From: a virus
Taxonomy: Duplodnaviria > Heunggongvirae > Uroviricota > Caudoviricetes
Direction: 5' to 3' (one strand)
Length of the DNA: 40,415 bases
IMG/VR virus record: IMGVR_UViG_2551306526_000008
Location: 1 to 40,415 of that record
The position numbers and the translations under genes were made by a program. The notes below the pieces were generated by a model. It was given only the letters and a program-made list of their open reading frames with translations, searched no databases and had not been told where the DNA came from. Positions 2,494 to 8,777 of the stretch are shown here, in pieces; positions within the stretch are counted from its first letter, which is position 1, and every line of letters starts with the position of its first letter.

Positions 2494-4497
2494 TCAAATC
2501 AGCCCATAAATAACATTATGCAAATGAAGAGAGCCTGCTTCACCGGAAACATCAAAATCAATCCTAACTTTGCTTGCTCCAGGAGGAACAATATCTATTA
2601 ATGCGTAGAAATTCCATGTGGAGCCTGGTGGAATTGTAAATGTTGCTTTTCCCTGAACAGAGTTCCCTTCTTTATCAAAAAACTCAATGCCAGCGATTGT
2701 TGTCACTTGATTCTTAGCCCAAAAACCTAACTGGAAATATCGTCCTGGTGAGCAGTCGGAGCACTCCTGATAAAATTTTGCAGATGCTCCTATAGATGGT
2801 ATTGCTACATACAAAGACCTGGAAAACATAATATCATTTGGAACATCAGAATCCGTTCCTGCTGTAACAACACCTGAACCAGTTTGTTGAAGGCTCCAGT
2901 TAGAGTAGTTTAAAAACTGTCCACTGCCATTCGACAATGAGTTTATGTAAGCACTAACAATGTTACCTTTATCCCAATTTGCTGTTATAAAGCCAGCCCT
3001 GGGATAACAACCATAAGACATTACTTTCTTACTGTTCCCACCAATAATTTGACGCGCAGCAGCACCAGCGGCAATCTCTGTTTGCTCATATAGAGGAAGC
3101 GAACAGTTTGTTAGCGAGACGACCGCATCATCATTTGCAACGATTGGTATAGCTGAATATCCAGATGTAGTTAGCAGCGTTGAATCTTTAATACTCAATC
3201 TGGAACTGCCGCCAACCACAAATGCAACAAAACTTTGACTTGGTTGAAATTCAATGTTGCCATTTGCGTAAACAACTGTTGCGTTATCTTCAATAAAAAC
3301 AGTAGAATCAAAATAACCTTCTTTCTTACCTGCTGGCATAGAGCAACAGTTAAAAATAAATTGACCATTTCTCATGGTCAATGGACCTCCATTATCAACA
3401 ACCCAACAATTATTAAATGTCATTACCTCGCCTGAGTTTGATGGAGAATTAAATATAATTGTGTTGTTTAGACATCTTGATATTGTTACTTTGTCAAATA
3501 AAATTCTATATGAATTATCAAGAAACTCAATTCCAGCAGATGATATGAATGAAGAATTACTTATTCTTAACTCTGCTAATTCACCAGTGCCAATACCGCC
3601 AAGTAAAATCTTTTTAGATCCTAGCATCTTAAAAGATATGCCATCTAAAATTGATGTTGCATTTATTTCATCCCTATTATCATAAGAAATATTAGAGTTG
3701 CTTAACCTAATTGCATAATCACCTGATATCCCATTAATCTCAGTTAAAACGCATTTATTCGATCCTCTTAACCCACCCTTCGCGAAATCAATATCAATTA
3801 AACTCGAGAATTCTCCACTACATGGAACAACGCAATCATAACCTAGAGAGTTTATTTTATTAATAAATAATGCAATATCCCCAGCGCCGCTGTAACCAGC
3901 GTCATATACAGAAAACTCAAGGCTTGGGTTTATTCTCTTCCAATTTACACCGTTACCTTCTAAAACCATTACGTTATCAACTGCAATTGACTTGTCTACA
4001 GCTACAACAAACCCACCACCAAGTTCGAGTCCGGATACGTATGACTTTAAATATAATTTATCAGATATCGACATTCCTTGTATATCTTTAAGGGAGTTAG
4101 CGCTCTCTACCATTCCAATGTATTTGTAGCCAATATTACTTGATAGTTTTATAGATAACTGATCAGGATCATACTTCAGCACATTAGGAAAATAAAACTG
4201 CTGCGCACCATATGCATCATAAACAGCCATAGAATGGCCTTGCACAGTTACGAACTTGGCAATCTGTCCGTTATATACAGGGTAACCAGCAGCGTTAATG
4301 ATGATTGGTTGCGAAACAGGAACGTGAGAGCCATCTTCGTTTTCCACATAAACCTGAATCTGGTTTTCAGGATTTACCGGGTCAGTGTCAATTTTACCGA
4401 TATAAATTTTGCCATTGGCTACGGCTTTAAAAGAACGCGCCATAGTGAAGAGTTGCGATGGCATACTTACTACAACATTGGCTGTAATGTCTGTCAT
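2494..4497 (-). CDS. Tailspike protein: P22 gp9-like N-terminal head-binding domain with divergent receptor-binding/depolymerase body
   Basis: 667 aa; N-terminus [46 protein letters not shown]...VLKYDPDQ closely matches recalled P22 gp9 N-terminus; remainder not P22-like. Confidence 0.85.
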
Positions 4498-4675: not shown

Positions 4676-5599
4676 TCAGTAGTTATGTACTGAAGGAGGT
4701 AATTCTTTATTCTTAAGTCTCATCCATGCGGAAAGATTCGTTGGTCCGTCTGGCTCATTGATATCAACATCTCGTGTGTGATTGATTAAAACGTCTCTCG
4801 CCATTCCGATAACATACGAGAATTCATGACCGTAGTCGTAGCATCTGCCGGAATAGTTCGATTGAATTTGTTTTAATGCCGGATACAGTTCGCGGAATAA
4901 TGCCTGTGAGCGGTTGGCATAATCCCATAGCCATACAAGGCTGTTTGCTTCTTTTGCAGAAAGCTCGTTGGTTTTCTTCTCTTGTTTGCCAATGAACTCA
5001 CCTTCAAGCGGAACTCGAGCTGCAAGTGACAGTGCTTCGGTAAACTGCTCCTCACTGATTTCTTTGTATGAACATCCAAAATGGGATTTCAGTGACGACC
5101 ACATGGTGATCATCGCCTTAGCCTGTTTTTCCTTTGGCAGAGACTGACCGCGACTCATGACGAGTTGTTTAATGGCTTCCTGCTGTTCAGTGGTGATTTT
5201 ACCCGGCAACGCCTTTTTAGCTTTGCGTGGGTTAACTACATGACCTTTAGTCCAGTACTCGTAGAGCACATCGTCACACTCTTCCTGATACTGGATTACA
5301 TTGTCGCGGATTTCAGGGCGGACTTTGTTAGGGCTGATGGTTTGCAACCAGCCATTCAGTTTACGTAAAGCAAGGCAAATCATGGTCTGCACACCGCCAA
5401 CTGAAGGTATTGCGATTTCCACAATACCTTTAGCAAATCTTTGTTTTAACTTTGTAAACTGTGAAGCCCAATCCATACCCATTCCCTCAACGATAGGTTT
5501 CATTGGGGTGTACGGCTCACCGTTGTGATTGACAACATAAAGCTCTGCGCCGTGGAATGGTACATTGATAGTAGATACTGCTGTTGCTATACTTTTCAT
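4676..5599 (-). CDS. ant: Antirepressor Ant (P22 immI)
   Basis: ORF 4676-5665; start chosen at [17 protein letters not shown] (AGGA Shine-Dalgarno upstream), leaving a 68-nt arc-ant spacer as in P22; P22 antirepressor-like N-terminal domain; lies beside arc and mnt. Confidence 0.8.
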
Positions 5600-5667
5600 G
5601 TCAATATTTCCTAAGACGATTTGTTGATACCGAAGCCCTGACTGTTCCCGCAGTTGGGGCTTCAACT

Positions 5668-5829
5668 TTACGCACCAATGCGCCCTTCCTTCTTAAAGCT
5701 TTCCATTACTCGCTGATAAATCTCAGAATTAACAGACCGACCATTTTCTTCCGCCACCTTGCGTACCAAATCCAATACTTCTTTAGGCCACCGCAAATTG
5801 AACTGTGGCATTTTGCTCATTCCTTTCAT
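5668..5829 (-). CDS. arc: Arc repressor (53 aa)
   Basis: [53 protein letters not shown] is near-identical to recalled P22 Arc; track ORF 5668-5892 trimmed to internal ATG. Confidence 0.9.
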
Positions 5830-5843
5830 GTTCACCTCACAAT

Positions 5844-5864
5844 ATAGGTCCACGGTGGACCTAT
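5844..5864. promoter_or_regulatory. Mnt operator (Omnt) palindrome ataggtccacggtggacctat
   Basis: Perfect 21-bp palindrome between arc and mnt matching recalled P22 mnt operator. Confidence 0.8.
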
Positions 5865-5871
5865 TGAGAAT

Positions 5872-5892
5872 ATAGTAGAGTGCTTCTATCAT
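5872..5892. promoter_or_regulatory. Arc operator (Oarc) within divergent Pant/Pmnt region
   Basis: atagtagagtgcttctatcat is the reverse complement of the recalled P22 arc operator ATGATAGAAGCACTCTACTAT. Confidence 0.8.
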
Positions 5893-5919
5893 GTCAATAC
5901 ACTAACTTGGAGTGATGGC

Positions 5920-6174
5920 ATGGCTAGAGATGATCCGCACTTTAACTTCCGTATGCCTTTGGAAGTAAGAGAAAAATTGAAATTAAGAGCCGAGGCTAAC
6001 GGAAGGTCAATGAACTCTGAGTTATTACAAATCGTTCAGGATGCACTATCAAAACCATCACCGATTACAGGATATCGCGACGAAGCTGAACGCTTGGCTG
6101 ATCAGCAGGCTGAGCAGTTCAAGGCTATAGTGTTTGAGACACTTAAAAAGATTTATGAAAAGGATTTGAAATGA
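5920..6174 (+). CDS. mnt: Mnt repressor
   Basis: MARDDPHFNFRMPLEVREKLKLRAEANGRSMNSELLQIVQDALSKPSP matches recalled P22 Mnt. Confidence 0.9.
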   Translation: MARDDPHFNFRMPLEVREKLKLRAEANGRSMNSELLQIVQDALSKPSPITGYRDEAERLADQQAEQFKAIVFETLKKIYEKDLK

Positions 6175-6506
6175 GATTTCTATCACTGTTCTTGTTAGCA
6201 GTTGTCTCTTCTTCCAGTGCTGAGCTGCGCGAGCTTCAAACGGGTAATGACCTTCTTTACAACATTCAACAAGGTAAAAAGGGTGATGATTTTTCATCGC
6301 TTTACATTACTGGATATTTGCGCGGAGTAACTGACTCATTGATACTAATTGGTTCTCTATGTCCTCCTGATGGCGTTGACATGTATCAATACACCGATAT
6401 CGTTGAGAAATATCTAAACAAAAACCCAGAATCAAGAAATGAGAGTGCAGTTATACTAACCGCCCTAGCAGTAGGAAAAACATTTCCGTGCAAAAAGAAT
6501 CAATAA
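6171..6506 (+). CDS. Hypothetical secreted protein (signal peptide), moron translationally coupled to mnt
   Basis: 111 aa; start overlaps mnt stop (ATGA); N-terminus MRFLSLFLLAVVSSSSA looks like a signal peptide; two Cys in mature part; no recognised family. Confidence 0.6.
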   Translation: MRFLSLFLLAVVSSSSAELRELQTGNDLLYNIQQGKKGDDFSSLYITGYLRGVTDSLILIGSLCPPDGVDMYQYTDIVEKYLNKNPESRNESAVILTALAVGKTFPCKKNQ

Positions 6507-6521
6507 CAATAAGGGCTTAAA

Positions 6522-6911
6522 ATGAAATTGATTATAGCAATGGCTTTCCTTGTCTTCTCGTTTTCTGTCTCAGCAGAGTGCTGGGTCGTTGGAGATATGC
6601 ACGGAATAAGCTATTCAGAACGAAATAATTTTCAACCGGAAGAAGATGGTTTTAGTGGAACATTCATCATTAAGACAAACGGTGAAGATGCCAGTATCAC
6701 ATATTCTGGGACGGATGCGGGCGGCATGGCTTACAAAGCATTGTCTAAAAACTCCATCATTGGAATCGGCGCGAATGGCGAAACTCAACGAGTTATCGAC
6801 TCATGGGTAATACATCCTAATGGAACAGTTTTAATGTCGAAAACCATTTCTGGTTATGGGAATATGGATTCAACCAAAGCTTTTGTTGGAAAAGTAAAAA
6901 GAAAATGTTAA
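6522..6911 (+). CDS. Hypothetical secreted protein (signal peptide), second gene of mnt-linked moron
   Basis: 129 aa; MKLIIAMAFLVFSFSVSAEC signal-peptide-like N-terminus; Cys near both ends of mature protein; starts 16 bp after previous ORF. Confidence 0.6.
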   Translation: MKLIIAMAFLVFSFSVSAECWVVGDMHGISYSERNNFQPEEDGFSGTFIIKTNGEDASITYSGTDAGGMAYKALSKNSIIGIGANGETQRVIDSWVIHPNGTVLMSKTISGYGNMDSTKAFVGKVKRKC

Positions 6912-6935
6912 CGATTGAATCCAATTCCCCATACG

Positions 6936-8777
6936 TTACTGCTGTGTTGCCTCAGTAGCAAGCAGCGGCCTGATGGCATTTGCAGCGTTACTCAACGCTC
7001 TTTCATAGGCTGGCGTTCCAGCTTTAGTGTTTGCCAGACGTAAGAGAGCATTCCTTGCTGCTTTGGACTCATACAAACGCATCATTGCACCAAAGCCAGC
7101 CTCAAGCCCCATTGATACACCAAGAGTCGCAGTTGCGCCAATCGTCCTTATCCTGTTGGCTTGTGATTGCCCCGTCTGAGTTACTACATTTGCGGTGTCT
7201 GACCTTGCTGTTTGCTGTAGAACTTCATGAAGAGCATCAAGCTCTTTCATGTGCTTTCCAGAAAAAATAGTGTTGTAAATTTCACCGCCTGACTGAGATT
7301 TCAGCTTATTAACTTCAGTGATGAACTTGGCTGGAGAGTCACCGGCCTTTTCCGCTATTTTGCTGACGTAAGCTGCACGCATAGCATCTTTCCCTTTATC
7401 ATCCAGGGCGCTCCATATTCGTTTCACGTCAGATGGTTTTCTGCTTAATACAACGGTATTTATAAGTTCAGGACTGGCTTCACTGCTTGCCTTGTTGAGC
7501 TTGTTAGCAATGTTTTTATTAAGCACCTTATTATAAACGTTTGCATAATCAGAATTTGCTTTAAGGTATTTTGCTGCGTCTGATGCACCGAGGTTTTTAG
7601 CAACTGCGTTACGAAGGTCTTTTGACATTGCATTCTCTACCATATTGGTAGCTGCTTTTGCCTGGTTGGGGAAGACCATAGCATCTCCCTGAACATTAGA
7701 TCTAAATGCTGTTCTGTGCTGACGCAAGAGATCAAACGTAACATCCAAATCAGTTGCAGGGTTTGCTAATTCTTCACGTAGGTTACGCAAGGATGTAAGC
7801 AGGCTTTGATTGGCAGACGTCCCAAGCCGTTCCTGTCTTGCGATCGCTGTATTCAGAGCATTCATGGTATTTGTGGTATCAACTGCGGCATTACCCATTT
7901 TATTGGTGACGTCATTGATAACAGCGCCAGCGGCATCCTTCCGCCCCCTTAACGTGGTGGTAAGAGATTTCACCACATCATCAGGGTTGTACTCACCAAA
8001 ACGGTCAAAATAATTACTTACCAGCTTACTACGCGTTGCATATTGCTCCGCTCGCTTTGAGCCTGTCCCGAGCAAAGCCCCCTCGGCATCCTGAGTTAGG
8101 CCGCGAGTGAAAGCATTTTTCGGCGGGATAACATCAGATGTCATTGGTGTCACGCCCATCGATTCTGATGTGGCAATTTTCTTCGCCACTTCTGGCGCAA
8201 TATCACCTTTTATAGCCGTTATTCCACGCCCTATTCCCTTTGCTGCTGCGGAAAGAACACCCTGAGTGGCAAGGTTAACTCCGGCATTTTTAGCTGCATT
8301 TTGTGCGAAATCGCCTTTCTGATTTGCGGCCTCTGCCAGTGATCCAATAGCCATGCTTCCTGCCGTTCCAACTCCTGGAACTAAATACCCACCAATTGTT
8401 TCACCGGCTTGCGCGTAGGGGTCTGTCGGTCTGTCTACTGGACGATAAACATCATCCAAAACCTTGGGTCCACCAAGCCCCTGACTGATTGCATTAATCA
8501 GACTTGCGCCGCCCTGCAATACGTCAAATGGTATGTTTACCAGACCACGACCAGCCTGTTCTGCAATTTGCCCTGCACTTTGACCACCAGTGAGCCAATC
8601 GCCAGCTTGTTGCATCAATGATGGTTCTTCCCGTGTTGGTGCATTATTGGCCTGATTAACTGTTTGTTGCTGAACAGCCTGACCAGCAAAATACTCATCA
8701 ATGGCGGTGCCAATATCTTCGGTGCTCGTACCATCAGGAAAGGTAAATGTCTTACCGTTTGCAGTTACTTTCATCAT
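6936..8777 (-). CDS. Ejection/DNA-transfer protein, P22 gp16-like
   Basis: 613 aa; N-terminus [29 protein letters not shown] as recalled for P22 gp16; P22 gene order. Confidence 0.85.

Follow-up and report, generated by a model that had tools for sequence, protein, structure and literature searches.

Rap1a of Serratia marcescens gives immunity to Ssp1, and Tai4 of Agrobacterium tumefaciens to Tae4, both of them Tae4-class amidases. Such immunity genes also occur as orphans; SAIDI-1 of Salmonella Typhi carries orphan immunity genes, a Tai4-like one included, without effectors on acquired DNA (PMC7400221). In the reference record of phage P22 the superinfection exclusion gene sieA lies downstream of mnt, where it is convergent with gene 16 and abuts it with a gap of 22 nt. 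The SieA product is a multi-pass inner-membrane protein, and P22 mutations that escape it map to gp16 and gp20 (PMC10883804). The Hex protein of phage 434 was named for heterologous exclusion, in that Salmonella lysogens of lambda-imm434 exclude P22 and hex mutants do not (PMC3564112); its gene is downstream of cI on the PRM transcript, with codons that overlap those of cI. The locus analysed here has features in common with each of these systems.

The mnt region of a P22-like prophage of E. coli

We analysed a stretch of 40,415 nucleotides ("the window"; IMG/VR record IMGVR_UViG_2551306526_000008) whose source is an E. coli P22-like prophage beside tRNA-Arg(CCT) and an integrase gene. The part of interest, positions 5900-6935, has 100% identity in ten complete E. 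coli genomes, strain C included, among the matches listed. The features of this part and its surroundings are collected in table 1. The ant and arc genes (together 4676-5832, minus strand) are the divergent half of the immI region, and mnt, which encodes an Arc/Mnt-family maintenance repressor, is the first gene of the operon on the other strand. It is followed by two small genes, here called ORF1 and ORF2, and then by a homologue of P22 gene 16 that converges on ORF2 with 24 nt between them (Pfam Phage_P22_gp16 matches the gene 16 orthologues at related loci). The initial annotation had equated this slot with the P22 sieA position, and the layout of the P22 reference record bears this out.

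Table 1. Features of the immI region of the window and its surroundings
Feature	Positions	Strand	Evidence or remark
Tailspike gene	2494-4497	-	ORF list
ant	4676-5665	-	ORF list; 56% identity to P22 Ant (tblastn)
arc	5671-5832	-	ORF list; 98% identity to P22 Arc (tblastn)
Promoter-like sites, face-to-face	5864-5897	both	Consensus scan
mnt	5920-6174	+	Pfam Arc 3.7e-28, Repressor_Mnt 1.3e-11; 81% amino acid identity to P22 Mnt
ORF1, Rap1a/Tai4-family immunity-type protein, predicted periplasmic	6171-6506	+	111 aa
ORF1 predicted signal peptide	6171-6221	+	Sequence features
ORF2, Hex-family predicted secreted beta-barrel	6522-6911	+	129 aa
ORF2 predicted signal peptide	6522-6575	+	Sequence features
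Gene 16 homologue (ejection protein)	6936-8777	-	74% identity to P22 gp16

The ATG of ORF1 overlaps the TGA of mnt as ATGA, and ORF2 starts 15 nt past the ORF1 stop codon. Both are on the mnt strand and both have suitably spaced Shine-Dalgarno-like sequences (AGGA 7 nt upstream of the ORF1 start and AAGGG 6 nt upstream of that of ORF2). The coupling-type spacing and the close gap between the two genes agree with the initial annotation, except that its 16 bp between them counts as 15 nt. Upstream of mnt, a consensus scan finds a Pmnt-like site on the plus strand (TTGAGA-17-TATCAT) facing a Pant-like site on the minus strand (TTGACA-17-TATATT); their layout resembles that of the annotated overlapping Pant/Pmnt of the P22 reference record, and from their sequences we infer that they act as promoters. 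A further promoter-like site lies within ORF1 (6376-6403). The consensus scan found no intrinsic terminator on the plus strand from mnt to ORF2; shuffled sequence gives consensus terminator matches at least as often as this region does, and we therefore assign no end to the operon. It is presumed that mnt, ORF1 and ORF2 are co-transcribed, and ORF1 and ORF2, as the distal part of the mnt operon, would probably be made in the lysogen together with Mnt.

The N-termini of both proteins have the build of Sec signal peptides, with a basic residue, a hydrophobic core and then a small-x-small motif, as had been claimed for them at the outset. In ORF1 this segment is MRFLSLFLLAVVSSSSA, with predicted cleavage before ELR, and in ORF2 it is MKLIIAMAFLVFSFSVSA, with predicted cleavage before ECW (the calls come from a heuristic on sequence features). 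The N-terminal hydrophobic segment is kept in all 54 sequences of the Rap1a clade and all 115 of the Hex family (below). Both products are therefore predicted to be periplasmic proteins, which would be exported by cleavable Sec signal peptides and probably be stabilised by one disulfide each. The possibility that ORF1 and ORF2 are chance open reading frames was considered and discarded: in comparisons of ORF1 with homologues of 51-77% amino acid identity synonymous sites are saturated and dN is 0.15-0.39, its dN/dS against the Tatumella homologue is 0.13, and that of ORF2 is 0.28-0.33, values which indicate purifying selection.

ORF1 and its relatives

ORF1 is clearly a member of the Rap1a/Tai4 type VI immunity family. 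It matches Pfam PF18602 (Rap1a) with 55.3 bits (cut-off 27.7; E 9.7e-15) over model positions 1-90 of 90, and the same domain is carried by all but one of the 53 matches in its profile search. A sequence-only search of the PDB finds just Agrobacterium Tai4, and that weakly (E 0.01-0.08), so a comparison of structures was needed to confirm the family. The AlphaFold model of ORF1 (built on 54 homologues, pLDDT 90.5) has four main helices, and its best seven Foldseek matches in the PDB are all Rap1a or Agrobacterium Tai4, each with probability 1.00. The entries matched are 4bi8 (Serratia Rap1a with Ssp1), 3zfi (Rap1a), and 6ije and 6ijf (A. tumefaciens Tai4), with target-normalised TM-scores of 0.72-0.74; all of the matches that come after these have E values above 0.3. 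NCBIfam and PADLOC contain no match to ORF1. In RefSeq (PGAP) the protein is already named "Rap1a/Tai family immunity protein", and it is present in 26 of 5426 complete E. coli genomes. The initial annotation had found no family for either protein and had proposed HMM and structure searches; these place ORF1 through PF18602 and Foldseek, and ORF2 is a homologue of 434 Hex (below), so that neither can be called unplaceable.

ORF1 resembles Rap1a and Tai4 in its predicted all-alpha fold, in its size (some 95 residues when mature), in its predicted signal peptide and in a pair of conserved cysteines (Cys64 and Cys107, each kept in at least 90% of the 54 homologues). Unlike the characterised members, to which it is only about 25% identical, it is encoded on a P22-like prophage, is translationally linked to mnt, and has no adjacent effector or type VI cluster.

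The closest relatives of ORF1 (52-79% identity) are found in the mnt-to-gene-16 slot of Serratia and Tatumella prophages and of a Buttiauxella prophage remnant, and the members of its clade with at least 50% identity are all prophage-borne and in the immI slot. In Serratia fonticola (79% identity to ORF1) the order is mnt, Rap1a gene, a second, divergent Rap1a gene and gene 16, and these tandem divergent genes look like an immunity array. In Serratia sp. JSRIV002 (75%) mnt and the Rap1a gene are followed by a gene at the gene 16 position that encodes an SLT domain, and in Tatumella terrea (52%) mnt, again with an ATGA overlap, is followed by the Rap1a gene, a gene for a 157-aa lipoprotein and gene 16. 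The Buttiauxella agrestis remnant (60%) has an mnt fragment, the Rap1a gene and genes for two exported proteins, and a second E. coli lineage (65-67%) has mnt, the Rap1a gene and a Hex-like gene whose product is 48-49% identical to ORF2. At the loci examined, no type VI gene or cognate effector lies beside any member of the ORF1 clade, and since ORF1 has no effector beside it we call it an orphan. In this it resembles the orphan immunity islets of the SAIDI-1 type, where immunity-family genes are likewise without effectors on horizontally acquired DNA; it differs from them in that the carrier is a temperate phage, in that the gene is part of an operon of the phage immunity region, and in that only one recognisable immunity gene is present. 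More distant relatives are found in larger phages. One of about 40% identity belongs to a cluster of early genes in an 82-kb phage contig with a thymidylate synthase gene, and one of about 30% to a cluster of early genes in phage DSL-LC04 (61.5 kb), close to the gene for DNA polymerase I; a Bacillus phage also contains a weak match. Type VI immunity would be a less obvious benefit for larger phages with such genes in their early clusters.

ORF2, the Hex family and the sieA position

ORF2 is 29% identical to Hex of phage 434 over its full length of 129 residues (BLASTP E 8e-15), and further full-length homologues are gp38 of Sf6 and proteins of HK633, HK446 and Sf101 (tblastn, BLASTP). In 434, Sf6, HK633, HK446 and Sf101 alike, the Hex-type gene comes after the gene of the cI repressor. 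When 1.84 billion cluster-representative proteins were searched with a profile, the family expanded to 140 clusters at 50% identity, mostly of 120-140 aa, and the same search also recovered the short annotated form of Hex (E 3.9e-6). Among 115 aligned members, 105 have the small-x-small motif followed within three residues by a Cys plus an aromatic residue; a Cys among the last 12 residues occurs in 111, and many have a second Cys pair in addition. In ORF2 the conserved terminal pair is Cys20 and Cys129. The AlphaFold model of ORF2 (pLDDT 94.8) is all-beta, an up-and-down barrel of about nine strands, in which the first and last strands would pair and so put Cys20 beside Cys129. PGAP starts ORF2 at an internal Met, giving a 104-aa protein that has lost the signal peptide and the conserved Cys; conservation in the family supports the 129-aa form.

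There is no real Pfam family for ORF2 or for the 115 Hex-family members, ORF2 has no match in NCBIfam or PADLOC, and the sole family profile that it matches is a PHROG without an assigned function. The PDB, when searched by sequence with ORF2, returned noise only, and comparison of its model with the PDB gave generic barrel matches only. A periplasmic lysozyme inhibitor of the PliC/MliC type was considered, and no specific structural match to the inhibitor barrel was found. ORF2 was also considered as a lipoprotein, an idea that was discarded since a lipobox is lacking: the position ahead of the Cys usually has a charged residue. Lastly, ORF2 is not a SieA homologue; a tblastn search of the window with P22 SieA found no P22-type sieA (best E 0.73, at an unrelated place), and ORF2 has a single N-terminal hydrophobic segment with a cleavage motif, so it does not have the inner-membrane character of SieA.

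The resemblances of ORF2 to the Hex proteins of 434, Sf6 (gp38), HK633 and HK446 include the signal peptide, the ECW that follows the predicted cleavage, and the C-terminal Cys, and the genes of both lie behind the gene of a lysogeny-maintenance repressor, with a start that overlaps or nearly so. On the other hand ORF2 is behind mnt in immI, not behind cI as is 434 hex, and it abuts gene 16; it has also diverged from Hex, and the phage that it excludes may differ. With P22 sieA it shares its place downstream of mnt, convergent with gene 16 and abutting it, and, as proposed here, expression from the prophage and DNA delivery by P22-like phages as the target. The proteins themselves are unlike, SieA being a multi-pass membrane protein and ORF2 a predicted soluble secreted beta-barrel.

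The initial annotation had also suggested a survey of this slot across P22-like prophages. For this, 80 P22-like IMG/VR contigs were retrieved whose ORF2 alleles have 87-100% identity, and in every one the Hex-like gene lies directly against gene 16. A Rap1a gene is present between mnt and the Hex-like gene in 13 and absent from the other 67, which have 0.4-3 kb of variable cargo in its stead; this includes genes for a PEGA-like lipoprotein, a P63C-domain protein, a ClpP-like protease, a SocA/Panacea toxin-antitoxin module, a PIN-domain protein and a homologue of P22 orf59a. The Hex-like gene is thus the constant occupant of the sieA position, and the Rap1a gene is one of many cargos of a hotspot. 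Even an ORF2 relative of only about 30% identity abuts a gene 16-like gene, one that encodes 1362 aa with a gp16 domain. Other Hex-family genes are found in a siphovirus tail-region accessory-gene slot beside RexA and RexB, in an integrase-flanked island, in an array of small DUF genes that all point one way, next to a gene for reverse transcriptase, and at two stand-alone chromosomal sites; a profile scan of genome contigs with a narrow alignment returned a single locus. In about ten distinct contexts sampled, no type VI gene or recognisable toxin adjoins a Hex-family gene.

Possible functions of the pair

We propose that ORF1 and ORF2 are a lysogen-expressed envelope-defence pair, ORF1 as an orphan type VI immunity protein and ORF2 as a periplasmic superinfection exclusion protein, and we put the probability of this reading at roughly 0.45. 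ORF1 would bind and block a Tae4-class peptidoglycan amidase injected by the type VI system of a competitor, and lysogenic conversion would be the route by which the host receives this orphan immunity gene. This function is assigned from family and fold, by analogy with the Rap1a-Ssp1 and Tai4-Tae4 pairs, and we consider inhibition of a Tae4-class amidase by ORF1 to be somewhat better than an even bet; if it is an immunity protein, it most probably acts against bacterial toxins rather than phages. ORF2 would be a periplasmic factor that keeps P22-like phages from superinfecting, and so would replace inner-membrane SieA in function but not in homology. The argument for ORF2 is that exclusion of P22 is the one genetic phenotype of the Hex family, that the linkage to gene 16 is tight down to about 30% identity, and that SieA, whose escape mutations lie in gp16 and gp20 (PMC10883804), is encoded at the same position. 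We advance this part tentatively, at a little less than even odds, and 29% identity to Hex is no guarantee of the same target. Less likely is a wider version in which Hex-family proteins are periplasmic disulfide-closed barrels that block the gp20/gp16 conduit as a soluble alternative to SieA, any anti-RecA activity is secondary or an artefact, and the Mnt operon combines them with an orphan type VI immunity gene (Rap1a). Of the novel exclusion, envelope-modifying or immunity function first suggested for these genes, exclusion or immunity is still the best-supported reading, and the novelty is lower, as both families are known. Homology to an already characterised phage protein had been named as something that would speak against that suggestion; such homology exists in part, in that 434 Hex is genetically characterised.

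The two proteins might instead both be immunity proteins against interbacterial toxins, with ORF2 directed against some periplasm-acting effector and the whole slot an acquired interbacterial-defence cassette. The second position of the slot is occupied by another Rap1a gene in Serratia fonticola and by other exported proteins or lipoproteins in Tatumella and Buttiauxella, there are two diverged forms of the pair of Rap1a and Hex-like genes (65-67% and 48-49% identical), which travels together among prophages that differ in their mnt and gene 16 alleles, and the DUF array that includes one Hex-family gene resembles an immunity array. However, the contexts sampled are without type VI genes or recognisable toxins beside the Hex-family gene and are mostly phage accessory-gene slots, the Hex-like gene lacks a Rap1a partner in most of the P22-like contigs, and phage exclusion is the only known genetic phenotype of the family, so we regard this idea as unlikely. 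Both proteins could also be directed against phages, ORF1, like Sp of T4, inhibiting a virion-borne or lysis-associated peptidoglycan hydrolase of the incoming phage while ORF2 blocks the ejection-protein conduit. The wholly prophage-borne ORF1 clade in the immI slot, the distant relatives in the early regions of the 82-kb contig and DSL-LC04, and the defence-type cargo (SocA/Panacea, PIN, ClpP-like) that otherwise fills the interval between mnt and the Hex-like gene would all fit, and inhibition of a phage-borne wall hydrolase is the main alternative function for ORF1. But type VI amidases are what all characterised proteins of the Rap1a/Tai4 fold neutralise, this fold has no known phage hydrolase target, and the wall-degrading activities of P22-like virions are of the glycosidase type and not NlpC/P60 amidases; that both proteins are anti-phage factors is in our opinion improbable.

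The published work on Hex points in yet another direction, namely a cytoplasmic role in which it inhibits the RecA-stimulated autocleavage of the 434 and P22 repressors (PMC3564112). Deletion of hex raises spontaneous induction about 30-fold, in recA+ cells only, and a fragment of Hex prevents, in vitro, the RecA-stimulated cleavage of the repressor of 434; it also prevents that of the P22 repressor (PMC3564112). The P22 result is relevant to a P22-like prophage. This is the only published Hex biochemistry, and by extension ORF2 would be a cytoplasmic factor that damps repressor autocleavage and so lowers spontaneous induction. Against this, all 115 Hex-family members have an N-terminal signal peptide as judged by sequence features, and nearly all have the terminal Cys pair, which is typical of oxidised periplasmic proteins. 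[quoted passage not shown] Counting from the DNA given in the methods of that paper, E43 is the residue right after the predicted signal-peptidase site, which falls between ANS and ECW, and the active fragment is half of the predicted beta-barrel. The paper contains no mention of a signal peptide or the periplasm for Hex, and export was never considered in it. The start at E43 and the lethality are more consistent with an exported Hex, a reading that differs from the conclusion of its authors, and the cytoplasmic mechanism does not fit the export signals of the family; we think it very unlikely that ORF2 has such a role.

The family and annotation of ORF1 are already known, as is the membership of ORF2 in the family of a named phage gene. 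In the open-access literature that we searched, we found no description of the linkage between a Rap1a gene and mnt seen in the P22-like prophages of several genera, of the Hex family as a regular occupant of the sieA position, or of the export signals of Hex, and no paper on P22-like phages as vehicles of type VI immunity. If ORF1 protects as proposed, temperate P22-like phages would be vehicles of orphan type VI immunity among the gut Enterobacteriaceae, and lysogeny would be linked to how cells survive contact-dependent warfare between bacteria. Should ORF2 prove to be a periplasmic exclusion protein, a direct test would become possible of how the Hex phenotype, known for decades, comes about; the cytoplasmic model of Hex in the literature would be called into question, and the sieA locus would have a second solution, unrelated to the first. 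Between mnt and the Hex-like gene there is a clear cargo hotspot that is worth mining for defence genes, and, if the wider version of the proposal is true, a single repressor-linked transcript would guard the envelope of the lysogen against both phages and bacterial attackers.

Start codon and predicted export of the Hex-family protein

The Hex-family gene of the window (ORF2, 6522-6911) is assigned an internal methionine start (window 6597) by RefSeq/PGAP. This gives a protein of 104 aa (6698-7012 in L001, the E. coli C prophage locus) that has neither the signal peptide nor Cys20, which is invariant in the family. The pattern of conservation in 115 homologues favours the longer product of 129 aa.

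A stable fragment of the phage 434 exclusion protein Hex has its N-terminus at E43 of the 158-aa frame (PMC3564112). The predicted signal-peptidase site of 434 Hex, between ANS and ECW, matches the N-terminus of this fragment exactly; export of Hex was never considered in that paper.

Sequence features in the window and in related loci
Feature	Locus	Position	Strand	Setting or remark
Promoter-like site TTGACA-16-TATCGT	window	6376-6403	+	within ORF1; 10/12 matches
Phage 434 hex	L003	2001-2405		
Rap1a/Tai4-like gene with signal peptide	L101	7001-7339		early small-gene cluster, 82-kb phage genome
Rap1a/Tai4-like gene with signal peptide	L120, phage DSL-LC04	2932-3258		early small-gene cluster, 61.5-kb genome

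Gene content and possible transcripts between mnt and gene 16

The E. coli C prophage (NZ_CP029371.1 4293770-4306805) is a short remnant, flanked by intS and torI/dsdC. Its block of tailspike, ant, arc, mnt, Rap1a, Hex-like gene and gene 16 is intact, with 100% identity.

Across 80 P22-like contigs of IMG/VR (L017-L096), mnt and the Hex-like gene are separated by 0.4-3 kb of DNA that forms a hotspot for cargo. Its contents include a PEGA-like lipoprotein, a P63C-domain protein, a ClpP-like protease, a SocA/Panacea module, a PIN-domain protein and a further secreted protein (105 aa, L087), as well as additional Arc-like and antirepressor genes. Where such cargo lies on the opposite strand, the Hex-like gene must have a transcript of its own, and in the window a separate ORF2 transcript could arise from the promoter-like site inside ORF1. 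An ORF2 relative of about 30% identity (L104, 7001-11497) is convergent with, and adjoins, a gene of 1362 aa that encodes a gp16 domain, so the Hex-like gene and gene 16 stay linked even at deep divergence.

Relatives of the two genes in other settings

Hex-family genes are also found in other surroundings. One occupies an accessory-gene slot in the tail region of a siphovirus, adjoining rexA and rexB homologues (L010, 6001-7822); the same slot in its sister contig L009 is without rex genes. Another Hex-family member (L012 and L013) is part of a one-directional array of >12 small genes with gaps of about 70-140 bp, among them HEPN, DUF4272, DUF1761, DUF6678 and DUF6953 genes, and this arrangement resembles an immunity-gene array.

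The mnt slot of a Serratia fonticola P22-like prophage holds two tandem Rap1a-family genes (L004, 8001-8715) that are only about 30% identical to one another. Bacillus phage vB_BspP_Dartukuta gives a weak Rap1a/Tai4-like match. This match, like the presence of Rap1a/Tai4-like genes in DSL-LC04 and in the 82-kb genome, is odd if the role is purely one in type VI immunity.
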